From Candidatus Bathyarchaeota archaeon (lineage in GTDB: Archaea; Thermoproteota; Bathyarchaeia; Bathyarchaeales; DTEX01), in contig CAVQNT010000006.1 of NCBI GenBank assembly GCA_963714275.1, forward strand, positions 470,591 through 534,590: DNA of 64,000 nt, given 5' to 3'. The translations under genes were made by a program, and so were the position numbers. How positions within the stretch are numbered: the first letter of the stretch is position 1; each line of letters begins with the position of its first letter. Below the pieces are notes generated by a model. That model searched no databases. It was not told the origin of the DNA and saw only the letters and a list, made by a program, of their open reading frames with translations. This document shows, one piece after another, positions 31,102 through 51,772 of the stretch.

Positions 31102-31107
31102 TTGACA

Positions 31108-35121: not shown

Positions 35122-35137
35122 CTAAGCCTTAAACCAT
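35122..35137. repeat. Third, partial (16 nt) copy of the endA-derived att core
   Basis: ctaagccttaaaccat is identical to the core of 35950-35971 and 51195-51216. It overlaps the stop of ORF 35129-35459 in a different frame from endA. Confidence 0.7.
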
Positions 35138-35459: not shown

Positions 35460-35665
35460 CTTTTCAGTTTGTCCTTGAAATACCATTCAACCGCAAGTAA
35501 GACCAAAGGCACAAGGACTTTGCCGCTTTCCGCATCTCCCCTGATGAGAATGATAACAAGCCCAAGGACGAGAATTAAAGCGATTAAGAAACGGTAGTCA
35601 GCCATCCCGACTTTGATGCCAAGATTCTTAATTGTTATCCGTGGCTCTTTTCGGGGCTCAGGCAT
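35456..35665 (-). CDS. Small membrane protein (69 aa)
   Basis: Two hydrophobic segments; translationally coupled to 35129-35459. Confidence 0.4.
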   Translation of the reverse strand: MPEPRKEPRITIKNLGIKVGMADYRFLIALILVLGLVIILIRGDAESGKVLVPLVLLAVEWYFKDKLKR

Positions 35666-35945
35666 TAAAGGTTCTCCTCTTAATTATGCGCCTACGACCA
35701 GAAGTAAAGCTCAACAATAGAAGCTCGGCGACGTCAGGCGGAATCTCAGTTTTGTGGATAACCGTTACGCCGTCAAGGAAGCTACAGGGATGCAAGTGTA
35801 ATCGACTTCGTAAAAGTCGTTGTTAAGTTTGAAACTATTTTGGGCGAGAACAATATGTCTCCGTTTCTGTCCAAGGACTCTCAGGTATATCCCCCAAGCG
35901 CGCGCTATGAAAAAACGAATACTAGACTCTCAGAAAATCCGTTAT

Positions 35946-35971
35946 TTTACCCTAAGCCTTAAACCATTTAT
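35946..35971. repeat. Left direct repeat (attL-like) of the integrated element
   Basis: ccctaagccttaaaccatttat (35950-35971) is a perfect 22-mer match to 51195-51216. Similarity extends to tttac with one C-run indel. It is an orphan copy of the last endA codons. Confidence 0.85.
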
Positions 35972-36273
35972 TATGGACATACTGTTTGAGGTATTGTATT
36001 TCTCTTTATTTATCTTAAATATTTCCTACTCTTTATTTATATTGAGGTGAGAAACTGTTGGAAAAAAGATTAGAATCTCTAATAATTGATACTTACGATA
36101 CAGTTATGAGAATAGAAAAAAACTTAAGGAAATTGAGGTTAAACTTAACTGAATAGAAAGTAAAACAAAAATGATTTAGATTAACTCTATGAAGATTTTA
36201 TTATATGTATGACTTTGAAACTTCCCTAAGATAATCAATGTATAAGGGACTTAATTCAAAGCAAACATATGGT

Positions 36274-36768
36274 TCAAAGATCATGTGATTCATATTCAAC
36301 CAGAAGCATTTTAGAATAGACAGATTCAATCATATCTGAAGGGATATGTTCCAAAATTTTTAAATTATGAGTCTTTGGAACATTGATTATTTCTAAAAGT
36401 CGTCTGAGTTCTCTCTTATCATTTTCCTTTAATCCATTAATAAGGTTCGCATATGTTAGAACTTCACTTAATAATCCCAATTCCACGTGTGATGGAGCCC
36501 ATGTAATAAGATATCGCTCGTTTTTAATAATATCTGGAATTTCATTTTGTGCTTTTTCCTTAATTAAATATGAAATGAAGTCTCTTCGTTCACGAAAAGT
36601 TTTAAAGGTTGTGTCAAAAACCTTGATTGTGTGTGTTCGGAGAAGTTCGTCTTTAATTTTGCCGATTTCCAATCTAAGATTGGGCTTGGAAAAATCATCA
36701 AGCAAATAAAATATGACTAAAAAAGTTTTGGTATTTTCGTGCCAATTCCAACGAACATATATAGGCAA
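36274..36768 (-). CDS. Hypothetical protein (164 aa)
   Basis: ORF 9 nt downstream of 36777-37647 on the same strand. No family recognised. Confidence 0.5.
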   Translation of the reverse strand: MPIYVRWNWHENTKTFLVIFYLLDDFSKPNLRLEIGKIKDELLRTHTIKVFDTTFKTFRERRDFISYLIKEKAQNEIPDIIKNERYLITWAPSHVELGLLSEVLTYANLINGLKENDKRELRRLLEIINVPKTHNLKILEHIPSDMIESVYSKMLLVEYESHDL

Positions 36769-36776
36769 TTCAACAC

Positions 36777-37647
36777 CTAACCGTTTGACTGTAATATCTT
36801 GGTTAGTTCTTCAAGACTGTTTGTGCACAGATTTAAAATTTTAAGCCAACCTTCATTCCAATTTGTTAATGGATATCTATCAATACCCAAATTTCTTAAA
36901 ACCATTAGAATCTCGGATGAAGTACAATGAACAGGATACATCTTGTTCCTAAGTGTTATCAAATTTCTTAAATTCGAGGTAGCATGGCGAGGAAGATTAT
37001 TATAATTTTCCTTTAGAATATGCTCGAGTATGTTTATCGAACCCTGTAATGTTTTACGCTTTTCTGGATCTTTTATTATGTCTTTTCAGCTCATTCTCAT
37101 TAATTCTATCAAAGACACCTGCTAAGGCTTGTATCTTATAAGAAAAATTCTCACAATCTGTACAAGGCTTTGTGAAATCAACAACAGCAAGCATGTCATC
37201 TAGAACAGGCTTGAAAAAGTTTCTACCAAACTTGTCTTTAAAATTGGTATCAAAATAGTTCCTATTCTCAACAAATAATTGAATTGGTGGCATGACAAGT
37301 GAGGTTCCATAAAGTTCTTTCATTTCTTCCATAACTTTTTCATCAAGTAGAGGAATTAAGTCTGTTTTATTTTGTGATGTATTGAACTCACAGGAATCGC
37401 AGTTCTTTGACAAATTTAAGTATTTTAAGACTTGACCATAAGTCTGATAAGGACCCACTTTTTCTATCTTCTCGGATCTCTTACAGAAGGCATACCATGC
37501 TATTTCTCCAGTTTTGTAATGCTTACCAGACATTACAAAGCATCTTTTACATCGTGGAATTGTCTCGTCTGTATAAACGTGCATACCATTAAAGTATTTA
37601 CCCGTATCTCTAACTGATTTGGGAATGCTCATATTCACTTTTACCAA
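36777..37647 (-). CDS. Cys-rich hypothetical protein with C-terminal R-x6-H segment, frame broken near 37055
   Basis: 37054-37647 (CKRC, CDSC and CTDC pairs) continues after a shift into DPEKRKTLQGSINILEHILKENYNNLPRHATSNLRNLITLRNKMYPVHCTSSEIL... down to 36777. The HEPN-like reading of LRNKMYPVH is speculative. Confidence 0.4.
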
Positions 37648-38023
37648 AAAATCTCCCTCGTTGTAGATTGTATATTCTCATTATTAAAAATTATTGTATA
37701 ACTTTTGAAAAATTACTAACTTTTCGCTCCCGCATTAATACTTGTGTTTTCAGGGTTATTTTTGTTGTTTCTAATACAAAATGACCCACAAAACATATAT
37801 GGGACATACCCCCTCTTAACGGGGTTTTTACCCCATGAAAACACCGAAAATATGGTCATGGAGGTTTGATAAAAATGCTTACTGGACAACATGGAAATCC
37901 GTTTGGAACAGACATAAAGAATGTCAGAATCTTCTTTAGAGACAACAAACCGCATTCACTAAGAGAATTAAACCACTTGCCTAATGCTCATCCCTATATT
38001 CGCAAACTGTTTCACCAGAGAAA

Positions 38024-39373
38024 TTGCTTAGAACAAGAGATTTACTAAATTACGATTACATTGAGAAACATGGTAAGAAATCAAAATGGTGTCGTATCAG
38101 AGGTTACATGTACATTAGGAAAAAAAGTCCAAAATTGTCTGAGAACAACACATTACAATGGGAGTTCAAATATACAGAAAGCCTTACAATGAAAGCAAAC
38201 TCAGAAAAGGTAACGCTACAGTTCATAACATATGAAGAAAGTAAAAAAATGCAGACAGACAACTACAAACAAGTCATATCACAAAATGAAATACTGGAAT
38301 ATTTCAAACAACGAGGCATAGGTGCAACATTGTCGATTATATCAACCGATTTGAATGTAGACCCAAAATTAGTGAAAACACATGTTTACAAAATGGTCAG
38401 AAATGGAAAACTAACAAAGAAAGGAAAATGGAATCAATCATTTGGTCGAGAAACAATATTTAGAGGCAAATTACACGGATACGTCTATGGATTAACACCT
38501 GAACAATGCGACCTTTTCATTAAATCTGGAGAGGTTTTAAGTCCTGAGACCAATGCCATACTAAAAGAGGTAATTAAAAACTCAAACGAACACAGAGTTA
38601 CAGCAACACATCTCTTCGAACATCCGCCATACAATTATGACCCAGCAGGTGTTAAATATGATGCTGAAGTTCTAACAAATACCTTCCCAAACATTGTAAA
38701 AATTGCAGTAGCAGGATATGTATTAATCTATGATAAAGACAAACTCACAGAAGAAGATGTTGAAAAAGAAAAAACCTATTGGACAAACCAAGCAAGTAAG
38801 GACAAATCGCTGGGACATACTATTGGAGAAACACATGAAAAAGTTGTGCAGATATGCTTAGACCAAATGGGTAAAGACGCAGATATTAAGTGGCTATTTC
38901 AATCTGTTATTCGTAGTAAAAAAATTAGTTATCAAATACGCCTCAGTAACGGTCGTGAAATAGACAGAATACTGCAAGTAAATATCGAACCATTTGGAAT
39001 TAAGCATTACTATCCAATAGAAGCCAAGTATCAAAGGACAGATGTAATGATTGCAGATGTATTTCAATTTTACGATACACTTTGCAATTCATACGAATAC
39101 GGTTGTTCTATCAAATACAATGGACAAGATGTAAAAACATTGAAGTTCAATGTGACACCTATATTTATCGCTCCAAAAATAACTAAAGACGCAAGGAATT
39201 GGGCATTATCACATGGTATGATGGTAATTCCAACATGGGTAATGACACAATATTATCGGAAAAAACACAACCTAAAAACTATCGTAATAAAGGATCTTTC
39301 AACTGAATTTCTTAACCGAACAAACAAGAAGCAAACAATTGATGAATTTCTAAAGGAAAAAATAGGCAGGTGA
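38024..39373 (+). CDS. Winged-helix + Mrr-like PD-(D/E)xK nuclease-domain protein
   Basis: wHTH (ILEYFKQRGIGATLSIISTDLNVDPKLVKTHVYKMVRNGKLTKKG). The C-terminal GETHEKVVQICLDQMG...REIDRIL...YPIEAKYQ...VMIADVFQF fits the E...D...ExK order of Mrr-type endonucleases. It may start further upstream (37866) via a frame break. Confidence 0.55.
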   Translation: MLRTRDLLNYDYIEKHGKKSKWCRIRGYMYIRKKSPKLSENNTLQWEFKYTESLTMKANSEKVTLQFITYEESKKMQTDNYKQVISQNEILEYFKQRGIGATLSIISTDLNVDPKLVKTHVYKMVRNGKLTKKGKWNQSFGRETIFRGKLHGYVYGLTPEQCDLFIKSGEVLSPETNAILKEVIKNSNEHRVTATHLFEHPPYNYDPAGVKYDAEVLTNTFPNIVKIAVAGYVLIYDKDKLTEEDVEKEKTYWTNQASKDKSLGHTIGETHEKVVQICLDQMGKDADIKWLFQSVIRSKKISYQIRLSNGREIDRILQVNIEPFGIKHYYPIEAKYQRTDVMIADVFQFYDTLCNSYEYGCSIKYNGQDVKTLKFNVTPIFIAPKITKDARNWALSHGMMVIPTWVMTQYYRKKHNLKTIVIKDLSTEFLNRTNKKQTIDEFLKEKIGR

Positions 39374-39380
39374 ACCAATA

Positions 39381-39782
39381 ATGGTCATACGCAGGGCAAC
39401 CATCACCAATGTGCCTGCGTTGACCAAGATACATCGTGAAGTGTTTAGCGGAAGATGGAATTTATCAGAACAAGATATGACATGGCTTGTAAAACATTGT
39501 CTAACGTATTGGATTAAGGACATTGGTTACATATCTGTTTGTTCAACCAACGGTTATCAAAGAATCGAGTCTCTTGTAGTTATACCCAAATATCAAAGAA
39601 AGGGCTACGGAACACGTTTAGTACGACATGCTCTAATGAAAAGTAAGTGAAGAACAACAGTTATGTGCAGCACAAGAAAAGTGAAGTTCTACGAGAAATT
39701 CGGTTTTAGAAAAACCAGAGTGTATAAACATCACGATTGTTGGAATGGACAAACTGCGATACTCATGGTAAAAGAATTCTGA
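39381..39782 (+). pseudogene. GNAT-family N-acetyltransferase with in-frame TGA at 39648-39650
   Basis: Motif A VVIPKYQRKGYGTRLVRHAL, then TGA, then in the same frame RTTVMCSTRKVKFYEKFGFRK (motif B). Starts 8 nt after the preceding gene. Confidence 0.65.
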
Positions 39783-39872
39783 GACTAATGGATTAAAATT
39801 TATAGCCCAACACATCCGCAGCATTACACAAGTTCACCTATAAATCGCCAAGGTTATCCTTCAATGGCTTTA

Positions 39873-39919
39873 GTGTGTGTGCGGTGGGTTAAAATTTAAT
39901 CCCAAACCCAAACCCAAAC
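39873..39919 (+). repeat. Intergenic motif family, most complete copy (GTGTGTGTGCGGTGGGTTAAAATTTAATCCCAAACCCAAACCCAAAC)
   Basis: Contains both the TGTGTGC half and the TTAAAATTTAATCCCAAACCC half seen separately elsewhere. Confidence 0.6.
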
Positions 39920-39994
39920 TGTGGACCGTATGTTCACATAATTTATATGTTGTAGTGATATAATTCAAATATAGTTTATGAAGGGTGAGAGATC

Positions 39995-40306
39995 ATGTCT
40001 TCTTGCGAAAACATATTAGCGAGCGAGAAAAATCGAGGTGGATTTACTCTCTCAGTAGTCGCAGAGTTCAATGACTATGGTCCTGTTAAGTATACTATTC
40101 GTATTGAAAAACCGAATGGGGAATGTGCGGACTTTGTTAGTAGCTTGGATGGATTCAGGAAATTTGGAGAGTTGTTATTAGATTTGCATTCGTTTACAGA
40201 AGAAAAACTCTATGCTACAGACAAAGAAAAACTGAAAGAAATCTTGACTGCTGAAAACATCAAGACTTATGTTACTTTCAAGAAAGTAGGGACATTTAAG
40301 AAGTAA
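39995..40306 (+). CDS. Hypothetical protein (103 aa)
   Basis: ORF with an upstream GGGTGAGAG SD-like motif, bracketed by two copies of the intergenic motif. No family recognised. Confidence 0.45.
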   Translation: MSSCENILASEKNRGGFTLSVVAEFNDYGPVKYTIRIEKPNGECADFVSSLDGFRKFGELLLDLHSFTEEKLYATDKEKLKEILTAENIKTYVTFKKVGTFKK

Positions 40307-40378
40307 TTCAAGCTAGCGTTGCACTGAGCAATAAGCTTAGCATTAGACATCAGTCAACTCTCTTTCAACGTAAAAAAA

Positions 40379-40448
40379 ATTTGGTTGGTTGGTTGGATCA
40401 AAATTTAACCGTAACACAGAGGTGTTGATTTTAACCCATTTCTGTGTT
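40379..40448 (+). repeat. Intergenic motif family variant plus hairpin
   Basis: tttggttggttggttggatcaaaatttaacc followed by an 8-bp stem, aacacaga (40411-40418) / tctgtgtt (40440-40447). Confidence 0.45.
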
Positions 40449-40500
40449 GAGGGTTCTGATGGATTTGTTATTTTATGACAAGAACCTTACAACATTAATT

Positions 40501-41237
40501 TTAGTTACAAAAAACATGAAACAAGATTATGCCAACACCAAAAGAAATCCTACATGAATTTTACCTATTACTTAACCAATATGTAATTCTGGGAAGTTCC
40601 TATATCAAATGTAGCGTGATTGGTTTTTTCCACATTAATATTTTCCCGTAATTTGCTGTTTTCTACAAGAAACCTTATTAAAACCAAGTCATAGTGTGCA
40701 CTCTTTGTTTGTTTAAACATTTTAGAAGAAAATCTAAACATGATGCAAGTTGCTTGTTACAAAATCCGTAACAATATTGTAGAATATTGTGGAATAACAA
40801 CAAGTGGAAGAATCCACATAATTTCTGGTTCGTTTTGTAACATTTTTTACATTGAATCCAATGTGTTATTATGGAAAACATTAATTACGTATGTGAATTT
40901 GGTGTTTTAGTTTTTCAGACCATCTATATGTGTTTACTCTTGTAATAGTGGTTTACCCACACTCACAACCCATTTTTAAAAAACGTATTGTATTTTTATG
41001 TAAAATCCTTTGGATGTTAGGCACCACTTTTGAAACATACAATGAAAACAACAAGATTCTCCCAATCAAACCACAAAAAGGTGGATTTACTGTATTGTCG
41101 GACAGTTAGTAACACAAAACCCAAAGAAAATGGGTTTTCAATGTCCGTTTCCAATACCTTTTACTAAACCCTCTTGGTTTTTTAGTTACAAAGACCGAAC
41201 TTGTTGTATTTTTTATCCACACAATTAGTTACAAAAC
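40501..41237. repeat. Iteron-bearing non-coding region (TTAGTTACAAA motif)
   Basis: ttagttacaaaa at 40501 and 41226, ttagttacaaag at 41182, ttagtaacacaaaac at 41106, gttacaaaatccgtaac at 40756, and inverted ttttgtaac at 40833. No credible ORF lies across 40320-41280. Confidence 0.6.
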
Positions 41238-41282
41238 AATGTCTTTTAGGTTTTTAGTGAGTGAGATTCAAACGTACAGACA

Positions 41283-41621
41283 ATGAAATATTTTGAGGAT
41301 GTAAAGGAGACAGAGAAGGCAACGAGGCTTATTGAAACTGAAAATTCAAAATCGAAGGGCAAGGTTGAAAGCATGGGTCTCGAACAAGCCGAGTTCCAAA
41401 AGAAGATGAATACGCTCGAGTCACATCAGAGGACTGTTGACCACGTTTTGGGGTTGCTAGACCTTAAGGAAGAGGATGCTAAAGTCATCAGTGAAATGAT
41501 TATGGACTATCGGGAGAGGAAGAGACTAAAAGTGAGGTTGAAATATTGGAGGCTAACCAAAAAAGTAGAGATGAGATACTGGAAGAGCTTAGGAAAGAAA
41601 AAAAGGTTAGTCTATTTCTAA
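41283..41621 (+). CDS. Hypothetical coiled-coil-like protein (112 aa)
   Basis: Charged, heptad-like composition. No family recognised. Confidence 0.4.
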   Translation: MKYFEDVKETEKATRLIETENSKSKGKVESMGLEQAEFQKKMNTLESHQRTVDHVLGLLDLKEEDAKVISEMIMDYRERKRLKVRLKYWRLTKKVEMRYWKSLGKKKRLVYF

Positions 41622-41634
41622 TCTAATCAAAAAA

Positions 41635-43419
41635 TTAATCGTGAAATCTGATAGAAACTAATACTTTTTTAATAGATTCAGGGGTTCTGCTCTTTTCACC
41701 AATATTCTTAGCGATAGAATAGCAAAAAACATTAAAGCCCATTACAATACCTTTCTCCACAAGTATTTTTTGATAAAATTTCCCCAGAATTGTTTTACCA
41801 TTAAATTTTGTAAATGCCATCTTTGATGATACCATGTTCTTTAATTCTTCTATTATTTTTTGAATCTTTTCTAAAATTTTCTTATTTTCATCAGGGTCCG
41901 TGAAGTCACTATTTAATTTCTTTATTGTATCATCTCTTTCAATGACTAACTCGTTCAGATTTCTTCCTTTAAAGTTGAATTTAAAAGGTGGAATTAGTGT
42001 CGCTAATCTCTTATCAATTTCATCCTGCAAACTTTCTTCGCATATAGTGAACATTTCCTTCTCAACATCTTCTGGACAAGATATTCCTGTTTTTTCTTTG
42101 TATGGCTCTAGCACTTCAAATATCGAAACTGGATTTATTAGTGCGTTTTCAATTGTACAGAATTCCCATGTAAATATTGAGGGAGAAGGTTCTCTAAAAA
42201 AGAAATCAGCATCTACGACTGCGTAAGCAGGAAAACCAATTAGCTTGTCCGTAATGATTTGATTTAGTATCATTGTAGTCTTTCTTGACTTCTCCTTTAC
42301 CGCCCATTGGTATGAATATAAATTGTTTGGCCTCGGAGCAAAGTAATTCTAATATTCTCTGATCACTTGGGCTAGTCTTTATGTCTTGAGGACTCTTTCC
42401 TTCTATAAACACTATAGGTCGTCCTAGTGTAAGAATGGCAATGTCTCCGCACACATTTCTGAGAAGGTCAAGTTTTTCTTGGCTTGAAACAACTCTACGT
42501 CAGGCTGGTTCTCGTTTCCTGCTCTACTTTTTTCTACGAGCACGAAAGTCTCTTCAGAAGATGCTTCATTAATTATGACCGGAGAGTGTGTTGCGATTAT
42601 AAACTGGACATTATCCTGATTTGCTCTTTCTCTCATATATTCAATCATTCTCTTTTGAAGTACAGAATGTATATGCAAATCTGGTTCATCAATTACCATT
42701 ATCGTGTCTGGTGTTACATTCAAATCTGGCGGTTTACCCTTTTTCTATTCTTCGTAGAAATGCATTAATTTCCCTCTCGATTAAAGGCATAAACAACGCA
42801 ATGATCTCTTTTTCTCCCAGACTTAAGGTCATCTATGTCGATAGGTTCATTTGACCCCCCAATATTCAAAAGACATGTTACATTACCCCGATTCTTTTAA
42901 TCAATACCTACAAACTTCAAATGAGGAAGAAGTAAATCCAGAAGATCCTTAAGTGGTTTATAAACATCAGGTGCATGTCCTTCAGGATACTTTAAATCGT
43001 TTTTGTCGATTTCAGACACGATCGCAGTCAGACGTCTAATTTCTATCTGAGCAAGAGTATACTTAATGAATCCTAAAGATTCATCAGCACTATCTGCTCT
43101 TCTAGACCGATCTGATAATATTGGCATTCCTTCAATATTGGGTATGGAATCCGCTTCTAATATACTTGAATATTCCAATTCTTGCGTCCATAACGTTGTT
43201 GTTCTAATAGTTCTTCTCCGCCAAGTGCGATGCGGAGCTGACGTAAAGAATTTTACCGGAACCTTTAACCTTATCTCCTGATAACTTCCTTAGTTCATAT
43301 AGTAAGGTAGACTTTCCTACGCCATTAGGACCAGCAATAATCATTAATTTTGGAACTGACTCACAGAATACTTTTTGAATGATTTTTACATCTGTTACTT
43401 TAAATGATTGTATTGGCAT
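41635..43419 (-). pseudogene. ABC-type ATPase fused to a DUF4435/Toprim-like domain (OLD / PARIS AriA-AriB-like), heavily disrupted
   Basis: Walker A IIAGPNGVGKSTLL (43204-43419); signature-like DLKSGEKEIIAL; Walker B and H-loop IMVIDEPDLHIH...IIATHSP (42424-42723); IVFIEGKSPQD...IFIPMGGKGEV (42206-42454); AVVDADFF...WEFCTIENALINP (41635-42273). At least 5 frame switches plus an in-frame TAA at 42897 are needed to read it. Confidence 0.6.
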
Positions 43420-43689
43420 GATAGCTCCTCCTATTTTTCCTTGTATGATTCATCGTTTCTTTCGCTCATCTCTATTTACTGATATATCTTTAATAAACAT
43501 CTTTTTCTATTTAACATACATAAACAGTGACTTAAAAATATGATGAAAAATATATATCAATCGATCGAACGAACCATGCCTGAGCTCAAGTTATACACAG
43601 AAAAGAAGAACTGCAACATATCTCACAGAGAGACATATCTATCAAAAGACAATATATGGCAAGTAGAGATATTATTGTGGGGATAGTAA

Positions 43690-44172
43690 TTGGATAAAGA
43701 AAAAATTTCAATCTTATTCAAAAGTTTAAATGAAAATGAGAGAAAGCCTCTTGAGAAAATATTGACCATAAAAGAAATAGAACTTTGGAATGAAATACAA
43801 AATGAATGGGTTGAAAAACTAAAGTTCTTTGTGAGTATTGATTCTGTTAGAGAAAAACTTGGTTTGAAACATGATAAAAACAAAATAAAAGAATTCTATA
43901 CTAAAGAAGACATCATTTGGTTAATTCATAAATATTGGAAAAAACCCAAAAATTATCTCCAAGAAAGACTAACTTTAGCACGTGATGCCCAACTTTGGCT
44001 TCTAAATATATATTCAGCCATCTTAACTGTTGGGTTACTAGGTACATGGCTTCTTTTTCTATCATATTGCTTCCAATCACAAGATATTGTACTTTTTCTT
44101 ATTATCTTAATTCCAGGAATTATATCCATGAAAATTAATCGTATAAGAAGGTGGATCAGCATTGTTTATTAG
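43690..44172 (+). CDS. Hypothetical protein with soluble N-terminus and two C-terminal TM helices
   Basis: ORF with hydrophobic segments LWLLNIYSAILTVGLLGTWLLFL and IVLFLIILIPGII. Confidence 0.45.
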   Translation: MDKEKISILFKSLNENERKPLEKILTIKEIELWNEIQNEWVEKLKFFVSIDSVREKLGLKHDKNKIKEFYTKEDIIWLIHKYWKKPKNYLQERLTLARDAQLWLLNIYSAILTVGLLGTWLLFLSYCFQSQDIVLFLIILIPGIISMKINRIRRWISIVY

Positions 44173-44345
44173 TGATAAATTCATTCGAGGGAATCTAAAC
44201 CACTATGATATCGAAAGCTATGTGATTGCTAAGATTCTTGATAAAAAAGAAAAGCCTGAAAAGAAAAATGGACAATAGTTTACGCGCGCGCTAAAAGTGA
44301 TAAGATTGAGGAATTAGAACTCACCTAGTAATTGGTGAAGCAGTC

Positions 44346-45296
44346 TTGAAAAGGGTTCTATACAATTCATCTGAAATTAGAAAGGAAATAATAAGAATAT
44401 TCAAATCTTATAATGAGCGTCGTGTCGCGATTTCTGCTTTTATTGGAGAAGGTGCTGATGCATACTTACCCACACCACAAGGTTTACAACTTATTTGCTG
44501 GCCAAAAGCGGGAAGTACTAATCCGGATATGTTAAGAGAACTCATTAAACGCGGGGTTGATGTTTTCTTTGCTGATGACCTGCATATGAAACTATATTGG
44601 AGCGAAAGTCAAGGAGCAGTTTTAACTTCTGCAAATCTATCAACCAACGCTCTTGGTTCGGGAAATCAGAAGGAGATAGGTATTCTAGTATCATCCAAAG
44701 ATATTGACATTGACCATTTAATAGCCTCAATACAAACGCGGCACGCATCTAAAAACGAGCTTCAGGAATTAGACCGTTTATACAAATCCTATGTCGTTAG
44801 AAATCCGCACGAGTTCAAATATAGGCATAGAGCAATGTCTTTTGCAGAATGGTACGAATCGCCTTTTCGAAAAGAATGGAAACTGGGCTGGTATGGTGAA
44901 TATGGACCAATATCATCTATTGCTAAGGAAAGAGCAATGAGAGAATATGGAGTTAATGAACCTAAGGATTGGCTAAACGCCTGCGAAGGAGAATTTAAAG
45001 AAGGTGATTGGATTCTTTCATTCAAGTTAATACGGCTTCCAAGGCAACTTCAATGGATATCGGTGGATGATGTCGTTAGTGTCCCCAAGTCTGATAAGGC
45101 ATACGAAAAAGAGTACCCTTACCAAGTTGTGCAGACTCATCCAAATAATTGTTATCCACAACCTCCATTTAGAATTAATAATAAGAAATTTATGAAAGCC
45201 TTCTCGAATGCAGTCCAGAAGTTCGGAGTAGATAAAGTAAAGAAAGTAATCACTCCCCCTAATGATTTAATTAAGTTTATTTTAACTAACATGTAG
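44346..45296 (+). CDS. PLD-superfamily (HKD motif) nuclease-like protein with unknown C-terminal domain
   Basis: DLHMKLYWSESQGAVLTSANLSTNAL fits H-x-K-x4-(D/E)...S-x-N. The N-terminal about 130 aa looks like a single Nuc-type PLD domain. Confidence 0.6.
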   Translation: MKRVLYNSSEIRKEIIRIFKSYNERRVAISAFIGEGADAYLPTPQGLQLICWPKAGSTNPDMLRELIKRGVDVFFADDLHMKLYWSESQGAVLTSANLSTNALGSGNQKEIGILVSSKDIDIDHLIASIQTRHASKNELQELDRLYKSYVVRNPHEFKYRHRAMSFAEWYESPFRKEWKLGWYGEYGPISSIAKERAMREYGVNEPKDWLNACEGEFKEGDWILSFKLIRLPRQLQWISVDDVVSVPKSDKAYEKEYPYQVVQTHPNNCYPQPPFRINNKKFMKAFSNAVQKFGVDKVKKVITPPNDLIKFILTNM

Positions 45297-45531
45297 CCAT
45301 ATCAAGATTAATCACTTTTTCAACAGAAAACCAGCTAACCAGGATATTTTTGTCCTTTTAGAAGCTTCCATTGACTTTTATAATCGTCCAAAGGAAAGAC
45401 TTCGTGTCTTGGATGAGGGAAGCCACGTATTGAACTTTTCTTGATTCGACCTCACTCTTTAGACCTTATTATTGCTCTCTCATTTTCTCTTTTAATATAA
45501 TCAGCAACTTTATTGGATGATATTAGCTGAG

Positions 45532-45936
45532 CTAACTTATGGTATTGCTGGAAATATGTCCGAGTTGTTGTCTCTTAAGTTTAAAATAGGCGATACTTTC
45601 TGCCGTTGTCTCCATTATTCTACCTCCACTTGTTTCACTGCTACCTTTGGTGTTCTTTTTTGTTTTATTCCGAGCTTCTTTCATCTTAGCGGCTAATAGT
45701 TGCATTAACCGAGTTGTGTCTTTGCTTTGGTTTGTTTGTTTCATGACATACATGTTTGAAGCATAGGCAACCCAGAAAATAGGTTCTTCTTCTTTGGTTA
45801 CAACAAAAATGCTTTCTGGATTGAATCTTTTTGGTATGTCTGATCTCATTTCTTTCGGTATTCTAGAGGATGTTTGTATTTCTGCATCTAAACCATTGGC
45901 ATCGAAGAAATCTTCTAAGACTTCTGTTATTTTCAT
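45532..45936 (-). CDS. Hypothetical protein (134 aa)
   Basis: Last ORF of the 47230-45532 minus-strand operon. The start overlaps the upstream stop (ATGA). Confidence 0.45.
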   Translation of the reverse strand: MKITEVLEDFFDANGLDAEIQTSSRIPKEMRSDIPKRFNPESIFVVTKEEEPIFWVAYASNMYVMKQTNQSKDTTRLMQLLAAKMKEARNKTKKNTKGSSETSGGRIMETTAESIAYFKLKRQQLGHISSNTIS

Positions 45937-46121
45937 TTTTTCAACCTCCTATTATCTTCATCATATTCTTCTACGAAAGTTCCACAACTTGGGCAGACGA
46001 AGCCTCTCTTTCCTTCCCTAACGCACCACTTTCTGTAATAATTAAGTTCTTTAACCGAAGTCTCGAACCAGCACTTACTACACTTTAAACTTTTATCCAC
46101 CACTCGTTTTGTGTGCGCCAT
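45933..46121 (-). CDS. Zinc-ribbon protein (62 aa)
   Basis: CSKCWF...CPSCGTF. Confidence 0.5.
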   Translation of the reverse strand: MAHTKRVVDKSLKCSKCWFETSVKELNYYRKWCVREGKRGFVCPSCGTFVEEYDEDNRRLKK

Positions 46122-46141
46122 GGCGATTCTCCTCCTCCTTT

Positions 46142-46864
46142 TTAATTTTTGATGTAAATCCCATTACCCTTCACGTCAAAGACATTTAGTCCAAGAAATG
46201 CTGAATATTGTGGTGTTACGAGAATTACCTTACGAGCAAACTTTCTGGACTCATAAACAAAACTCAAGAACGATTGAATGTTTTGGTATCGGTGCGCTTC
46301 TTCTACAATGATAATCCAATTTTTAAGATATTTGCGTTTGTCATTCAATCGTTCAAATATCCACTCGATGTCTCTTTCAGCCTTACGCACTTCTTTATCT
46401 GGTCTGAACCGCACACGGATCAAATCACCTTTGAATTGAAAATCATCAGATACATGTCTCAAAATGCCATACTCATGTGCAGTATCGACCACATAAATAT
46501 TATATCGCATTACCTTTTGCTTTTTGATCCAATTTAAGATCTTGTTTTTAACGAAATATGTCTTCCCACTTAGCGGTTTCCCTGTAATAACTATTGGTTC
46601 AGTCCCACGCATTGCTGTGGTGACGTCAACAGGATCACCATATTTTTGGCTTACAAGGTTTGTTTCATGTGCGATTACAGAACCTAAACTTGGAAGATTC
46701 ATTGTTTTCGTTAATTCTCTTAGTTTTGTGTGAATATCAAGTGGCACTTTCACCGTCTTTACGGGCTGATCACGGTAAAGTTCCCACAAAGGAGCAACTT
46801 CTTGCACTTTATTGTTCTCTGTTTTTATCACAGAACACTCACCTTCTAATAGAACAACAGGCAA
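46142..46864 (-). CDS. Small P-loop NTPase, FtsK/HerA/A32-like
   Basis: Walker A ITGKPLSGKT; VVDTAHEYG (HerA-like D-x-h-x-EY); Walker B-like WIIIVEEAHRY. Confidence 0.5.
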   Translation of the reverse strand: MPVVLLEGECSVIKTENNKVQEVAPLWELYRDQPVKTVKVPLDIHTKLRELTKTMNLPSLGSVIAHETNLVSQKYGDPVDVTTAMRGTEPIVITGKPLSGKTYFVKNKILNWIKKQKVMRYNIYVVDTAHEYGILRHVSDDFQFKGDLIRVRFRPDKEVRKAERDIEWIFERLNDKRKYLKNWIIIVEEAHRYQNIQSFLSFVYESRKFARKVILVTPQYSAFLGLNVFDVKGNGIYIKN

Positions 46865-46966
46865 AAATCAGAATAATTTACAACTTGTTTCTTCTACCAA
46901 ACTGCAACAATCTTTTGCCTCTTCTCGGCATCTTTTTGCGTTTCTTTTTCTGCTTTCTTACCTTTG

Positions 46967-47230
46967 TCATCGCCACTGCTCCATTACTAGCTTTTCTGTT
47001 TCTTTGTACTCTTTTCTGAATTTAACAAGTTTTACCTTTGTCTTATCCAGTGACAGTAAAATGTAACCACGAGAAAATAACAGATCTACAAATTCTTGAT
47101 ATTCTTTATGTTCGCTTATGTCAATCCAACCGTCAAATGATGGCGAGTTCCTTGATAGTTTTTTGTCAATACATAGCAACATGACATAAAATTCTCCCAC
47201 TCCCATTTTTTTTCCCAGCTTTTTTACCAT
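46967..47230 (-). CDS. Hypothetical protein (87 aa)
   Basis: First ORF downstream of the palindromic site 47317-47390. Confidence 0.4.
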   Translation of the reverse strand: MVKKLGKKMGVGEFYVMLLCIDKKLSRNSPSFDGWIDISEHKEYQEFVDLLFSRGYILLSLDKTKVKLVKFRKEYKETEKLVMEQWR

Positions 47231-47316
47231 TACAATTCGATCATGTGGATGTTTTTAACAAGTGGTCTTTTTGTGTTGTTTGGTATAGGTTTTTTACTAA
47301 ACGTTTATTAAATCAA

Positions 47317-47390
47317 TTTTTTGTCACATAGGATTCGTGTTAGACAAAATTTGTCTAATAAGGTGACATACGATTCCTATTGTGACAAAA
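47317..47390. promoter_or_regulatory. 74-bp imperfect palindrome (operator or origin-like)
   Basis: Outer arms ttttgtcaca / tgtgacaaaa, middle ataggattcg / cgattcctat, central ttagacaaa-a-tttgtctaa. Lies upstream of the 47230-45532 operon. Confidence 0.6.
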
Positions 47391-47408
47391 CGACAATAAT
47401 TTTGGTTG

Positions 47409-47633
47409 TTAAAATGGTTGCAAGTTTTGTAGGACATACAACACCATTTCTGACAGCCCATCAAGTGTGTAAGTGAAAAGTATGCCACAAATTAAGAGTA
47501 AGATTCCACTAAAATAGAGATCATAATCAAAAGTTACCACCAGCAAAGCCATTAAAATCCCAAGTGCTCCGAGAATGATGCAAATGTGCATCATTGTAGA
47601 GAAATCTCTGGCATCATTTATTGTGAACATCAT
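47409..47633 (-). CDS. Small 2-TM membrane protein (74 aa)
   Basis: Hydrophobic ORF. Confidence 0.4.
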   Translation of the reverse strand: MMFTINDARDFSTMMHICIILGALGILMALLVVTFDYDLYFSGILLLICGILFTYTLDGLSEMVLYVLQNLQPF

Positions 47634-47978
47634 TCCCTTTTCTTCTTAAAACTAAACTGGCTCCTTTCGTTTTTCATCTTGATACCAAAACAGCATTCCC
47701 TCTACATGCTGGAAAACATGATTTAGAAATTTATTTTTATTATGTAACAAAAATACGATAGACAACTTTACCATATAAAAGGTTTGTGGTATGTACTTGT
47801 ATTGAAAAATACACTGCCTTCCGTTGTGATCAGTTAAGATAATGGTGTAAAAGTCAATATTGGTTACAACTTGTTATTTTTTTTTACAACAACCTATTAT
47901 CAAACAGCTTTTTACTCTTGTGCTTTCTCAAATATTCTAATTCTATCACCATTGGCATGTATTCGAATTTTGTTTTGA

Positions 47979-48414
47979 TCACGTAATTTGCAAACCAAAT
48001 CCCAAAACTACGACAAATTTTTTCAAATCGTCTTCCCAGATGACATGCAATTCGTATCCACGTTTCTTGAAATATTGGATACGTGCTTTTTCTGTTAATT
48101 TTCTACAATGAATCTTGCCACTCATGTCGTAGATAATGAGATTTAATATCATCCCACCACTGAGAAACAGGTGTTCTCTCGTAATTTGCATATGGGTTGC
48201 ATTCCTCTAGAAATGCATCTACCACATATCCATAGACTTTTCTTTTGAGAAAAGCTATAATTGCATCTCTTTTCTCCGAAGAAAGAAACCCACTATACCA
48301 ATCGAAATTCAAACTATAGAAAGCTCTAAGAATTTTCACTCCCTCTTTGTTCCCTGCTTCATCTTCTAACGCTATTAGAGTCTTTCCAGTACTTAATTTC
48401 TTCCCACTCTTCAA
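47979..48414 (-). CDS. Possible Vsr/DUF559-like endonuclease, frame broken near 48150
   Basis: The C-terminal segment KLTEKARIQYFKKRGYELHVIWEDDL resembles the conserved tail of Vsr/DUF559 PD-(D/E)xK proteins. The two ORF pieces (48103-48414, 47979-48191) overlap in different frames. Confidence 0.35.
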
Positions 48415-48452
48415 GACCTTTCAGTTCTTCTTTAGTTGGCTTCATTGCATCT

Positions 48453-48704
48453 TCATATTCCATTGCCATTTTTTGTAAGCTTTTCTTGTAGCTTTATTGT
48501 TGGGTCGTAAAAAGTGTAGTTACAGTGTTTGCAATGATAACGCTGAATTTTATGTGGGCGTCGTTTTACTTTGTGAAACCCTGTTTTTATGATATTACGT
48601 GAACTGCACTTGGGACATATATGCGACTCTTTGACCATACAACCAACTACACGTTTAACAACACAAAAATGCCCTCTATATATATTTTTGCAAAAAGACA
48701 CCAT
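48453..48704 (-). CDS. Zinc-ribbon protein (CPxC...QRYxCxxC pattern)
   Basis: ICPKCSSRNIIKTGFHKVKRRPHKIQRYHCKHCNYTF. Probable start is the ATG at 48638. Paralogous in pattern to 49951-50298. Confidence 0.5.
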   Translation of the reverse strand: MVSFCKNIYRGHFCVVKRVVGCMVKESHICPKCSSRNIIKTGFHKVKRRPHKIQRYHCKHCNYTFYDPTIKLQEKLTKNGNGI

Positions 48705-48834
48705 GTTTTGTTTGGTTCAAAACAAACCAGAAATTTCAAAAAAGATACTCTAGAGCCAAAAACGTGTAGCTGGACGTGTAGTTTTAACAACTACACGATT
48801 AACGACACAAAAAAATGATGTATCATATCTTAAT

Positions 48835-49182
48835 TCAAAACACTTTTACGCTATCTCCATTAACATGTATCTGACATTTGTGTTGGTCTTTTAGCTGTAA
48901 TATCAGGTTCATGACCACTTTATCAGAAGCTTCTAGCCTGTCTGCGATGTCAATAATTGGTATCCAACCCTCTTGTTTCTGATATTTTCTCTTCTTTTTA
49001 AGCGAAGATAACCATGTGTATAGCATCTTAAGTGTTTCCTCTTCATCATCTAAGAATTGGGTTATTGCCTTTTGATCTATTGGTTTATCTTGTTCTATTT
49101 CTTCAGCGTGTCTTTCAGTTGTTTCTGCATCTGTTGGCTGTGTTTTTTGTGGAAAGAATTTGTCCTTAATCCGTTTAAACAT
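48835..49182 (-). CDS. Hypothetical protein (115 aa)
   Basis: ORF in the long minus-strand gene string. A 33-codon ORF (49179-49278) overlaps its start by ATGTTTAA. Confidence 0.4.
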   Translation of the reverse strand: MFKRIKDKFFPQKTQPTDAETTERHAEEIEQDKPIDQKAITQFLDDEEETLKMLYTWLSSLKKKRKYQKQEGWIPIIDIADRLEASDKVVMNLILQLKDQHKCQIHVNGDSVKVF

Positions 49183-49272
49183 CTTCCAACCCTTTCTCGA
49201 TTTCTTCTTTTATGTTCTCAGGCAACAGCTTAAATATTTGTTCCATATCTGTTGCAAAATCTTCTTCTGACA

Positions 49273-49473
49273 TCATATTTCGCCTCCAATGTACTTTATT
49301 ATGGCTTGACATCTTCCCTTGGCTTCGATTTCCACTATTTCCCATCCACCAGCAATCAATTTCTCAAGTTGCTTGTAGACAGTTTTAAGCGGTCTTCTAT
49401 CCAAGTCAAGAATACGCTCCATAAAATGCATCCCCTTTGAAACTTTACGTGTCTGTTGACAACTTCCAAACAC
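49273..49473 (-). CDS. Hypothetical small protein, possibly wHTH
   Basis: MERILDLDRRPLKTVYKQLEKLIAGGWEIVEIEAKG. Weak. Confidence 0.35.
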   Translation of the reverse strand: MFGSCQQTRKVSKGMHFMERILDLDRRPLKTVYKQLEKLIAGGWEIVEIEAKGRCQAIIKYIGGEI

Positions 49474-49933
49474 TACTACGTTTCATCTTTCCAGCGAGTA
49501 CTTTCCAAAAACTTTGAATCCCTATGAAATATGGACTATTGGGTAAATCACCAATAACAAGCACAATGCTTCTTTTACCCAATGTTGCCTTTCCACACCG
49601 TATGTATGTGTTGTTGACTAAATTAAAAATCGGGATGTCAGAATCTTTGTGTCTTATTAAATTTTTTACATCTAACACATAAATGAAAAATTGCCGAAGG
49701 TTTGAATAATCTTGCGGTTGAGAACCACCATTTGGTGTCATATAAATTACTCGTGGCGGTTTTGGTCCTATTCCAATCCAAACCAATAATGTATTTCGAT
49801 TTTTTGATAACCGAAATACGCCACTGCGTGTTGCATCAGGATATAAGTTAAGCAAATCTCTGTTTATTTCTTCTAACGCTTTTTGAATTTCTATCCTTTT
49901 CCTTTCTTTATTACTTAGTTCTGATTCTGACAT
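49445..49933 (-). CDS. Hypothetical protein (162 aa)
   Basis: ORF with no family recognised. Confidence 0.45.
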   Translation of the reverse strand: MSESELSNKERKRIEIQKALEEINRDLLNLYPDATRSGVFRLSKNRNTLLVWIGIGPKPPRVIYMTPNGGSQPQDYSNLRQFFIYVLDVKNLIRHKDSDIPIFNLVNNTYIRCGKATLGKRSIVLVIGDLPNSPYFIGIQSFWKVLAGKMKRSSVWKLSTDT

Positions 49934-49950
49934 ACATACACACCATTTAT

Positions 49951-50298
49951 TTATGCTACCTTTTTGTATGTTCGTGGCTGTTTTGGTATCAATTTTAATT
50001 TGCCACTTGTTCTCATCTTTTTCAATACAAAATTTAGCGTGCCTATGCCATCATTACCATATTTCGTAGTGACAATCTGTTTGATGCTTTCATACGTAAA
50101 TTTTTCAGAAAAAACATTGATGATATTCTTGATGCCAGTAATTGATACACTTGGTTGTTCGTAAAATGTTTTGCCACATTTCTGACATTGAAAGCGTTGT
50201 TTCTTATGAAGTTGTGGCTTCATAACTATGCGAAAACCAATCTTAGATGTTTTATCTGAACCGCATGCTGGACATGATACCATTTTACATACACACAC
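49951..50298 (-). CDS. Zinc-ribbon protein (CPxC...QRFxCxxC pattern) with C-terminal extension
   Basis: SCPACGSDKTSKIGFRIVMKPQLHKKQRFQCQKCGKTF. First gene after the 50.3-51.2 kb non-coding region. Confidence 0.5.
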   Translation of the reverse strand: MCVCKMVSCPACGSDKTSKIGFRIVMKPQLHKKQRFQCQKCGKTFYEQPSVSITGIKNIINVFSEKFTYESIKQIVTTKYGNDGIGTLNFVLKKMRTSGKLKLIPKQPRTYKKVA

Positions 50299-50637
50299 TA
50301 TAAGATTACAATAATATTTTTATAATTTGTCGTTTGAAAATTACCCATCTGTTCCAAGACGATGCACAAAACTAAAAAAATTTTAACACGTTTGTGTTAA
50401 ATTCGGGTAGCTGTAAACAATTTACAACAATGTCAAAACTGTGCAACCAATTGATCCATGTTAAAAAATAGTGTGTATGTAATTCAATGTCGAAAATATG
50501 AATACATGTACCAGAATCCATGCTTCCATAATACAACAGACATACAAGTCCCAATATAACCCAAAAAAGTTTTTAATACAAAACTGTAAATTCACCATTA
50601 AAACCCTATTGTTTACGATACTCTAACGATTATCGTT

Positions 50638-50681
50638 ATCGTAGATTAGTATAGACAAGTATTATCGTAGATCGTAGATTA
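50638..50681. repeat. Three copies of ATCGTAGAT(TA) in the non-coding end of the element
   Basis: atcgtagatta at 50638, atcgtagat at 50664, and atcgtagatta at 50671 (the last two overlapping). Confidence 0.6.
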
Positions 50682-51189
50682 CTCTATAGATCTGTTCTTT
50701 TTTAGAAAGTCTGAAAACCTTTTTTTAAGGTTTAAACACAATTTAACAATTTGGTCACACACAGAAAAAAGACATGGAAAACACATGTCGAAAAAAATCT
50801 TAACAACCTATTTTACGTTAAAAAATGTAAATTTTCCATGATTTCTAATTACTTTGTATTAGTGTTTTTTATGTAAATTTCCACATACAACAATTTTCCA
50901 ACACCATTGTCTTAAAAAAAACGAAAGTATTAACCAATAAGATATTAAACATTGAGTGTCAGTAAAAAACAACGAGTGAAATTGCATCTGTAAGTAGTGT
51001 AATCTGAACACTCTCTCTGAGTGAAAAATTACCCTGAATATTTAAGATCGAAGGTAAGCTTATAAAACATTTATAAAGAATACAATACCTCATAGAAAAC
51101 CAAAATTAACCACATCTGGGCTTTCCAATACAAACCAATAAACCCAAAAACGTGTCCAAAAACCAAAATCCTATCAGAAAACCCCTCGA

Positions 51190-51216
51190 TTTACCCCTAA
51201 GCCTTAAACCATTTAT
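51190..51216. repeat. Right direct repeat (attR-like), equal to the 3-prime end of endA
   Basis: Perfect 22-mer 51195-51216 matches 35950-35971. It covers the codons for KWFKA, the stop and about 9 nt downstream. Confidence 0.85.
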
Positions 51217-51754
51217 AGATGAAGTATTGAATCTTGTTTTTTTCTAGGTCGGGTACTGCTATTATGAAGCGTTTCCTTACTGTGGTTGCTAGTCTGCCTG
51301 CTTTTACAATTTCAGTTGCTGTGATGATGTCTTTTTGGCTTTTCACCGAAACCATGTAGGGCGCGTGGTCGATGCCTGGTCCCTGCTTGTAAACAGCGAA
51401 GTCGCATCCATACTTAACTCCGGGTGTAACCACTAAACTTTTTTCTCTCAAGTCCCGGTACACCGCATACATAGCGTCGAACGCGTCAAACGTTTTTTGG
51501 GCTCTACCTTTAAGAGTCCGAAGATTTACCCCTTTCTTTTCGGGTCCCTCAACAACGTGGACCAAGCCCTTCTCCGCGAGGTACAACCCCTCCATCAAGT
51601 CGAGAACAAGGGGCACGTCGAACTCTGAGCTTTTAGGCTTAGGAATACCGAGGGGCTTGCCGTAGAATCCGAGTTCAAAAAGATCTGAACCCTTTTTGGA
51701 ATCCCAAACAACGAGGAAATTCTCAACAAACTCAGCCTCAGTTTCCTCTGGCAA
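51197..51754 (-). CDS. endA: tRNA-splicing endonuclease EndA
   Basis: YRDLREKSLVVTPGVKYGCDFAVYKQGPGIDHAPYMVSV...AGRLATTVRKRFIIAV matches the archaeal EndA catalytic domain pattern (Y..LR..G..V..G.KYG.DF..Y....H..Y.V). Confidence 0.9.
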   Translation of the reverse strand: MPEETEAEFVENFLVVWDSKKGSDLFELGFYGKPLGIPKPKSSEFDVPLVLDLMEGLYLAEKGLVHVVEGPEKKGVNLRTLKGRAQKTFDAFDAMYAVYRDLREKSLVVTPGVKYGCDFAVYKQGPGIDHAPYMVSVKSQKDIITATEIVKAGRLATTVRKRFIIAVPDLEKNKIQYFIYKWFKA

Positions 51755-51772
51755 AAAACGTTCAGTCCCCCT

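Follow-up and report, generated by a model that had tools for sequence, protein, structure and literature searches.

A 15.2-kb island bounded by copies of the endA 3' end in a Bathyarchaeia archaeon: a possible integrative element without a recognizable recombinase

The locus described here raises the question of how a 15.2-kb block of DNA came to lie directly after endA, the gene for the tRNA-splicing endonuclease, when no recombinase can be recognized within it. Bathyarchaeia, which are among the most abundant archaea of sediments, have very few known mobile elements. The block, here termed island A, lies in a 64,000-nt stretch of contig CAVQNT010000006.1 (the window), whose host is a Bathyarchaeia archaeon with an EndA protein 93% identical to that of the metagenome-assembled genome (MAG) CAZRIK01 (locus L001) and 60–85% identical to those of dozens more Bathyarchaeia. 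An initial annotation of the sequence had read the block as an integrated plasmid-like or virus-like element, or a defense island, with the 3' end of endA as its attachment site. This reading is supported by empty sites in relatives, by a nearly identical contig that lacks the island and by the absence of dispersed copies of the repeat at its ends. With a probability of about one half, island A is a non-autonomous integrative element that was mobile recently and belongs to an undescribed Bathyarchaeia family with the last ~20 bp of endA as its target. Related genome and metagenome loci compared with the window carry L-numbers, and proteins from the protein collection carry P-numbers.

Borders of the island and sites without it

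Island A is enclosed by two exact copies of the 22-mer CCCTAAGCCTTAAACCATTTAT, att1 next to endA and att2 at the distal end (Table 1), where 0 copies would be expected by chance. With up to 2 mismatches allowed, the window contains no further copy, and none of 100 shuffled sequences had a match. Both copies had been reported in the initial annotation, which also took the right-hand one to be the end of endA itself. The sequence context agrees, with endA reading through att1 to YKWFKA-stop and encoding a full-length protein of 185 aa like its orthologues, and the 22-mer is not a dispersed repeat, which would have spoken against an attachment site. Homologues of EndA carry the Pfam domains PF01974 and PF02778. 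The likeness between att1 and att2 runs on imperfectly, with indels, for about 40 nt on the low-coordinate side, downstream of endA, giving about 60 nt in total.

The two-repeat layout first proposed is correct for both copies, but a third core, CTAAGCCTTAAACCAT, exact over 16 nt (att3), had been missed, so that the locus holds two tandem insertions and the left neighbor of island A, segment B, is also foreign. Relative to the conserved downstream intergenic region of the empty-site loci L003 and L005, att3 takes the position of the endA stop codon. Because att3 is the ancestral junction, the full insertion extends over about 35138–51194 (16.07 kb, island A plus segment B). The arm on the element side of att1 resembles the arm of segment B at 35915–35949, and its alignment (GGGGTAAATCGAGGGGTTTTCTGATAG) with the arm at the same distance from the core in the related locus L070 (TGGTAAATCGGGGGTGCTTTTGAG) has a score that was reached by 2 of 500 shuffles. 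Terminal inverted repeats are absent from both ends of the island, as had been noted before. A tRNA gene as the target was rejected, since no tRNA genes were found in the window or in 17 related loci. The initial annotation held the 3' ends of protein genes to be much rarer targets; in archaea such insertions are not rare, with 14 of 68 thaumarchaeal integrated elements sitting in such ends (PMC6563490).

At least six more distant relatives have fully empty sites. The blastn matches of L003 and L005 to the window continue through glyS and endA as far as the stop codon and start again about 80 nt further on, at window position 35045, and the intergenic sequence of these loci aligns with the sequence after att3. 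In the same two loci and in L007, L010, L014 and L016, the homologue of the native flank gene (34563–34961) starts 100–190 nt after endA, and both insertions are absent. No homologues of ORFs (open reading frames) within 35129–51100 were found in the endA loci of 58 relatives, and no att repeats were found downstream of endA in 41 relatives. The arrangement that the initial annotation held to be at odds with insertion, the same gene block after endA without flanking repeats, was not seen in these loci.

The EndA protein of the window had no exact match on record. The most informative relative is the contig of the closest EndA in the protein collection, P0017 (98% identity). This contig, L105 (JGI 3300047202), matches the window at 99.39% over 52967–51171 and at 99.26% over 35971–34093, with 45 nt, spanning a single core, common to both matches. 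This conspecific contig thus carries endA, the core, segment B and the flank but not island A, and its core joins window position 51171 to 35971. Because island A is absent exactly from this 99.3%-identical genome, it is one discrete block bounded by the core that was recently inserted or excised, and segment B is older, being present in both genomes. An exact search for the 22-mer in IMG/VR and the JGI contig collection gave no match, a weak negative result because the JGI collection is incomplete (L105 itself carries the 22-mer).

The position downstream of endA is a general variable spot. In L001 (10559–13234), which represents the closest species, an unrelated segment of 2.7 kb, encoding an MFS transporter and a 291-aa protein, lies without repeats between endA and the conserved flank gene.

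Related elements and the conserved backbone

A second element of the same kind was assembled from two overlapping loci. L070 starts with the 3' end of endA, and directly after the stop codon it carries the arm that is homologous to that of island A, followed by a regulator gene, a 600-aa P-loop Rep-like protein, the ATPase described below and type I restriction-modification genes. It overlaps L063 at 100% identity, and L063 contains a second copy of the endA end at 9914–9937 (23 of 24 nt), 64 nt upstream of a 518-aa nuclease homologue. L070/L063 is an independent repeat-flanked element of ~19.8 kb, of the same family, at endA in another genome. Its gene order is that of island A (Rep-like C-terminal domain, ATPase, 134/110-aa protein), with the nuclease as the last gene. 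A third genome (L069, 1–9325) has glyS, PhoU_div and endA followed after 138 nt by a nuclease homologue, a DUF87/HerA ATPase, ThiF-E1 and E2-like genes, and is a different defense-type island at the same endA site; its nuclease gene has the opposite orientation to that of L063. The nuclease and the ATPase are also combined in L065 and L068.

Island A has a backbone module at 45.5–50.3 kb of the window, with small ORFans among its genes, all on the minus strand in the same direction as endA. The ATPase, with 5 homologues in the initial protein search and relatives encoded in 32 metagenome loci, is the marker gene of the family. The closest relative of island A is L062, with an ATPase of 95% identity and two neighboring genes of 86–87% identity, which correspond to the 87-aa and 74-aa proteins of the window. 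Neither of these two proteins has family matches, and the 74-aa two-helix protein as a spindle-virus capsid found no support in Pfam or PHROGs. The 115-aa InsA-like protein matches the NCBIfam IS1/IS1595 Zn-binding domain (8e-7) in its Zn ribbon, and its C terminus is 55% identical to a 320-aa protein of L062, a domain common to the Rep-like proteins of L062 and L070. Only this C-terminal module of the P-loop Rep-like protein is represented in island A. The 115-aa ORF and the ORFs downstream were also considered as an IS1 transposase, which was rejected as no DDE domain is present. The 83-aa Zn-ribbon ORF has tblastn matches to the integrase N termini of L080 and L092.

The ATPase matches the B204 packaging ATPase of Sulfolobus turreted icosahedral virus (STIV) marginally, with E values of 0.2–0.3 by sequence and a Foldseek value of 7e-4 at a template modeling (TM) score of 0.4 for a model with a predicted local distance difference test (pLDDT) value of 60. 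A terminase-like PHROG is matched at 6.6e-5. The protein thus resembles the B204/A32-like packaging ATPases of tailless icosahedral archaeal viruses and proviruses in being a small P-loop ATPase (~210–240 aa) with a weak best match to them by both sequence and fold. Unlike STIV-type proviruses, it has a ribbon-helix-helix (RHH)-like N terminus, no capsid family accompanies it by Pfam or PHROGs, and no relatives of it occur in the viral contigs of IMG/VR.

Segment B, which starts with a family-type arm, is not found at the empty sites of L003, L005 and other relatives. Its main ORF (35129–35443, minus strand) is frameshifted in the window and intact in L105, where it encodes 122 aa with a weak Myb-like helix-turn-helix (HTH) match (Pfam Myb_DNA-bind_6, E 0.0016, below the curated cutoff). 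A homologue of 47% identity immediately precedes a Terminase_6N large terminase gene in the tailed-virus contig L109 (13039–16500; IMG/VR UViG_3300049478_000122), which also carries a nuclease homologue. The likeliest reading of segment B is that it is what is left of an element that integrated here earlier; archaeal elements are known to use a single site repeatedly in tandem (PMC6563490). Small terminase subunits are usually encoded where the homologue lies in L109, just before the large terminase gene.

Search for a recombinase

The absence of a recognizable integrase, stated in the initial annotation, was borne out by all profile searches. Pfam was run on the ORFs and on the 152 remaining stop-to-stop fragments of at least 40 aa, together with NCBIfam, PHROGs and a hidden Markov model (HMM) built from 5 integrases of related elements and run on the six-frame translation of the window (fragments of at least 20 aa). 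These searches found no tyrosine or serine recombinase, resolvase, transposase or Cas1 in island A. In the whole 64-kb window the integrase HMM matched only the Zn ribbons of the ORFs at 49951–50298 (1e-7) and 48453–48704 (2e-6), with no catalytic fragment. A hidden or fragmented integrase was discarded as a candidate, the fragment searches with Pfam and the HMM having returned only these Zn-ribbon domains. Rep, primase, MCM and capsid families were likewise absent from island A by Pfam, PHROGs and NCBIfam, in agreement with the initial annotation, as was its remark that no ORF abuts either repeat: none abuts or crosses the cores. A split integrase of the type found in Sulfolobus spindle-shaped viruses (SSV) was rejected since neither the window nor the reconstructed attP of L070/L063 has an ORF running across a core, and a casposon or transposon was rejected since Cas1, PolB and terminal inverted repeats are lacking.

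Integrases do accompany the family ATPase elsewhere. L059, L080, L092, L094 and L096 encode the ATPase together with a tyrosine integrase that has an N-terminal Zn ribbon and reaches ~430 aa, some copies being truncated where the contig stops, and L098 has only a 68-aa integrase fragment beside the family ATPase. As judged from their sequences, tyrosine integrases with Zn-ribbon N termini circulate in this gene pool. In the elements of these six loci, an integrase with an IS1-like Zn ribbon is often found beside a UvrD-like helicase, and in several integrase-bearing ATPase elements a very large protein (838–1483 aa) follows the ATPase.

The recombinase that acted on island A would accordingly have been supplied in trans, lost, or be of an unrecognized kind. 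Supply in trans is ranked first because the island has no recombinase or replication protein that these searches could detect, keeps DNA-binding Zn-ribbon proteins of the integrase type and was mobile recently.

Mode of integration

In the preferred explanation, the circular form of island A would carry an attP whose 22-bp core matches the endA end exactly and lies between the family-conserved arms. A crossover inside the core inserted the 15.2 kb, regenerating the 3' end of endA at att1 and leaving an orphan copy at att2. The site had already served an earlier element, of which only 0.8 kb remains as segment B, ending in att3, and the locus is therefore a tandem array. The event is recent, as the island is present in one and absent from the other of two 99.3%-identical genomes. 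The reaction would be a conservative site-specific recombination by an enzyme that is not recognizably encoded by the element and that was most likely supplied in trans, whether by a helper element, by a virus or as a Xer-type enzyme of the host. The pair of InsA-like Zn-ribbon proteins, homologous to integrase N-terminal domains of related elements, may be att-binding factors.

Several results weigh against this explanation. No helper or trans-acting integrase was identified, and no endA-like core or arm occurs in the available DNA of the integrase-bearing loci, for which reason L059-type integrases acting at endA were rejected as candidates. No circular junction or free form of the island was found in IMG/VR or the JGI contig collection. 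The indel-rich assembly leaves room for a very divergent, fragmented recombinase. L070/L063 also lacks a Pfam-detectable integrase, which simple loss would not lead one to expect and which is compatible with an unrecognized enzyme encoded by the element.

Such an enzyme is the subject of an unlikely but concrete alternative, in which the family encodes its own integration machinery, the lead candidate being the winged helix-turn-helix (wHTH)/PD-(D/E)xK nuclease of island A; it would make a staggered cut of attP and attB, and a ligase, either of the host or fused to the nuclease, would rejoin the ends. The nuclease is present in both att-bounded elements that lack an integrase (island A and L070/L063), its gene starts 64 nt away from the distal att of L063 and, in L069, 138 nt beyond the endA stop codon, and it is found at island borders in L065, L066 and L068. 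It never occurs together with a family-type tyrosine integrase in the loci available. Members of this nuclease family are rare, forming 56 clusters in a set of 1.84 billion representatives, and three of them (P0146, P0147 and P0156) are fused at the C terminus to an ATP-dependent DNA ligase domain (PF01068, 1e-30) in which the KxDG motif is intact. For elements at the endA end without a tyrosine or serine recombinase, a nuclease beside att combined with an ATP-dependent DNA ligase could amount to a cut-and-ligate integrase and a new mechanistic class, a stronger claim that is slightly less probable. The lead is suggestive, and the nuclease can equally well be read as restriction-type defense cargo. 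The best folds for its AlphaFold2 model (pLDDT 81) are ordinary restriction and repair nucleases (Foldseek: MspJI at 4e-5, followed by NucS/EndoMS and FokI), and since the TM scores are low (0.17–0.24) the match identifies a fold class, not membership of the MspJI family. The protein resembles the MspJI type IV enzymes in this fold match and differs from them in its extra winged-helix domains, the rarity of its family and its ligase-fused members. To our knowledge, no PD-(D/E)xK enzyme carries out conservative site-specific integration, which counts against the nuclease in this role, as does the occurrence of its gene in defense-island contexts and on tailed-virus contigs. In the window the gene is frameshifted and lies 1.9 kb from att2, and its orientation relative to the att in the endA sense differs between L063 and L069.

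Loss of a classical tyrosine integrase, deleted from beside attP after integration so that island A is now a locked-in remnant, is doubtful to a closely similar degree. It would account for the ~0.9 kb of AT-rich non-coding DNA at att1, where L070 has its regulator and Rep-like genes, for the reduction of the Rep-like protein of L062/L070 to a 115-aa C-terminal homologue in the window, for the state of the AriAB defense gene, which lies in at least 5 frames, and for the resemblance of two Zn-ribbon ORFs to integrase N termini. No trace of a catalytic domain exists in any frame, however, and much of the ORF breakage is assembly error. The insertion is moreover polymorphic between 99.3%-identical genomes, and the apparently complete L070/L063 keeps its Rep-like gene and yet has no integrase. 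Integration without any site-specific enzyme, by a single Campbell-type crossover of host homologous recombination with a plasmid that had captured ~60 bp of the endA end, would produce the same repeat structure, and the imperfect likeness of att1 and att2 to ~60 nt would fit it. This course of events is improbable, given that exact identity covers only 22 nt, that two independent elements in different genomes crossed over within the same ~20 bp, that the conserved arms are specific to the elements and are not copies of host flanks, and that the site was reused in tandem. The poorest prospect of all is that there is no discrete element, and that the region is a defense hot spot downstream of endA that was filled piecemeal, or an assembly chimera at a shared 22-mer. 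The endA-downstream locus does vary, with the repeat-free 2.7 kb of L001 and the different defense island of L069 at the same place, and the assembly is error-prone. Set against this, genomes that are 99.3% identical differ by the 15.2 kb in its entirety, as a single block bounded exactly by the core, a syntenic repeat-flanked element (L070/L063) exists in an independent assembly, and the backbone module is shared with L062 at 86–95% protein identity.

Comparison with known systems

Bacterial cis-mobilizable and integrative mobilizable elements rely on an integrase provided in trans, and integrative mobile elements exploiting Xer (IMEX) use the XerCD enzymes of the host. Island A is like these in being att-flanked and site-specifically integrated without a recombinase of its own; unlike them, it has no helper identified here, and no archaeal case was found in PMC6563490 or PMC8371274. 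In an IMEX-like element the att core would resemble the dif site of the host and be recombined by XerA; the dif site and xerA gene of this host lie outside the window. The att-flanked and cryptic elements of Thaumarchaeota (PMC6563490) are similar in their direct repeats around an AT-rich block of mostly ORFan genes, a protein-gene target rebuilt at its 3'-distal end, empty sites, tandem reuse and restriction or defense cargo. The vast majority of the elements in that survey encode a XerC/D-like tyrosine integrase, in contrast to the two att-bounded copies studied here in which none is detectable, and endA is not among the reported targets (PMC6563490). The host also differs, being a member of the Bathyarchaeia, and the backbone (RHH-ATPase, 134-aa protein and wHTH-nuclease) matches no described family. 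A survey of Bathyarchaeia mobile elements proposes four virus families (PMC10848311), none of which matches island A.

Elements with SSV-type integrases (class I, or 'suicidal'; PMC7253208, PMC8371274) are likewise archaeal with att cores of tens of bp. In these int is split at attP, unlike in the present family, in which no ORF lies at the cores of the window or L070/L063 and the reconstructed attP falls in a divergent intergenic region. Casposons at the 3' end of the EF-2 gene (PMC6563490, PMC4779613) also combine a conserved protein-gene 3' end, direct repeats and tandem arrays. Their Cas1, PolB, terminal inverted repeats and 14–15-bp target-site duplication are not found here, where the repeat is 22 nt long and accompanied by element-conserved arms. 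Insertion sequence (IS)/DDE transposons differ as well, as only InsA-like Zn-ribbon/HTH domains are present, without a DDE domain or terminal inverted repeats.

Island A is therefore of an ordinary kind, a site-specifically integrated element with defense cargo, and is unusual in its new family, host class and target gene and in having no recognizable recombinase in two copies. The family combines a mapped att in the essential and highly conserved endA with defense cargo and with strain-level presence and absence that indicates recent activity. Because two independent att-bounded copies lack a recognizable recombinase, it is a test case for archaeal trans-mobilization or for a new integration enzyme. 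The nuclease-ligase fusions are a testable lead in this respect, and the conserved 22-bp target with its arms is a ready in vitro substrate.

Features and defense cargo of the island

The coordinates of the features are listed in Table 1.

Table 1. Features of the endA locus in window coordinates
Feature	Position	Strand	Description
att1	51195–51216		22-nt core, endA-proximal junction of island A; last 6 endA codons, stop codon and 2 nt
att2	35950–35971		22-nt core, distal junction of island A and proximal junction of segment B
att3	35122–35137		16-nt partial core, junction of segment B and native flank; exact 16-mer common to att1 and att2
Island A	35972–51194		15,223 nt, 34.1% G+C; integrated element
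Segment B	35138–35949		812 nt, 44.0% G+C; older insertion remnant between att2 and att3
Element-side arm beside att1	51160–51194		GGGGTAAATCGAGGGGTTTTCTGATAGG on the endA-sense strand
Element arm			GGTAAATCGNGGGG
attR, endA sense			...CTATAAATGGTTTAAGGCTTAGGGGTAAATCGAGGGG
attL, endA sense			...GTATGTCCATAATAAATGGTTTAAGGCTTAGGGTAAAATAACGG
attB, endA sense			...CTATAAATGGTTTAAGGCTTAGGGTAAAATAACGG
attP, endA sense, predicted			...GTATGTCCATAATAAATGGTTTAAGGCTTAGGGGTAAATCGAGGGG
endA	51197–51754	−	tRNA-splicing endonuclease, 185 aa; target gene, 3' end regenerated by att1
AT-rich stretch beside att1	50299–51194		~0.9 kb, no ORF of 70 aa or more; regulator gene and Rep-like gene at this place in L070
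InsA-like protein	49951–50298	−	115 aa; Zn ribbon and C-terminal domain
Zn-ribbon protein	48453–48704	−	83 aa; related to integrase N-terminal domains (integrase HMM 2e-6)
Two small backbone genes	46967–47633	−	87 aa; 74 aa with two hydrophobic helices
Backbone ATPase	46142–46864	−	RHH-like N terminus and P-loop; family marker gene
134-aa backbone protein	45532–45936	−	Conserved; homologues in L070/L063 and L060/L061
PLD-like (HKD-motif) nuclease	44346–45296	+	316 aa; Pfam PLDc_2 1.4e-4 (below cutoff); PADLOC DrmC 8e-5
Fused AriA-AriB-like (PARIS) gene	41635–43419	−	ABC-ATPase/TOPRIM; broken into at least 5 frames
GNAT acetyltransferase fragment	39381–39650	+	Pfam Acetyltransf_1 1e-7; nuclease/GNAT pairing recurs in L065
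Restriction-like nuclease	37866–39373	+	~500 aa; N-terminal beta domain, winged-helix domains, C-terminal PD-(D/E)xK
Four ORFs between att2 and the nuclease gene	36274–37955	−	No family matches (Pfam, PHROGs, PADLOC, NCBIfam)
Native flank gene	34563–34961	−	Homologues directly after endA in L003, L005, L007, L010, L014 and L016

The cargo of island A for the host is, from its sequence matches, of the anti-virus defense type, with a PARIS-type AriAB, the restriction-like nuclease and a PLD-like nuclease. The GNAT fragment is also counted among the cargo genes. The fragments of AriAB match Pfam AAA_15 and AAA_21, and the frame-joined product matches PADLOC AriAB at 9.5e-56 over profile positions 245–690 of 694. 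The gene is thus like AriA/AriB of PARIS and differs in being frame-disrupted in this assembly; because of the number of breaks its intactness is uncertain. The restriction-like nuclease gene has one frameshift near 38030. Its homologues are about 500 aa long, with EIDR...PIEAK conserved in the close ones and the D of EIDR invariant in 33 distant members. In L066 (1–400), a nuclease homologue follows an apparent truncated, frameshifted threonyl-tRNA synthetase fragment, which was recognized from its motifs by eye.

Base composition, flanks and assembly quality

The G+C content of island A is about one third, against about one half in the endA-glyS flank, as had been estimated by eye in the initial annotation (34.1% and 46.9%, respectively). 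The native DNA to the left (24751–35121) is also low in G+C (37.0%, compared with 44.0% for segment B), so that the left border is not marked by composition and only the att1 side is sharp. The genes at 25–35 kb (histidine kinase, response regulator, GH3-like and membrane proteins) are kept near endA in L014, L020 and L023, and low G+C as proof of foreignness for the whole of 25–51 kb was rejected on this ground. The window segment at 26–32 kb is found in these three loci but in neither L001 nor L003.

Host genes whose L001 counterparts are intact (glyS, 589 aa; ORFs of 542, 523, 607 and 446 aa) are split into 2–3 frames each in the window (51217–62071). In the left-hand segment (34093–35971), 1-nt indels make up 7 of the 14 differences between the window and L105, a short-read contig. 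Because of these indels and the frameshifts in glyS and other host genes, the ORF breakage in the island is partly an artifact. Of the ~30 ORFs counted between the repeats in the initial annotation, most are indeed without families, but part of their fragmentation is sequencing error, and many are probably pieces of fewer genes. The pattern of indels resembles a systematic error of long-read sequencing, perhaps tied to a methylated motif. Contexts containing AGCT hold 6 of the 7 1-nt indels relative to L105, and AGCT shows no overall depletion.

An archaeal 16S rRNA gene stands alone at 21162–22664, and Rfam gave no 23S rRNA match within the window. In the host flanks and in L001, GGCC is strongly under-represented (observed/expected 0.16–0.32), CTAG has a ratio of about 0.3 and GATC of about 0.3–0.6, which is consistent with restriction avoidance.

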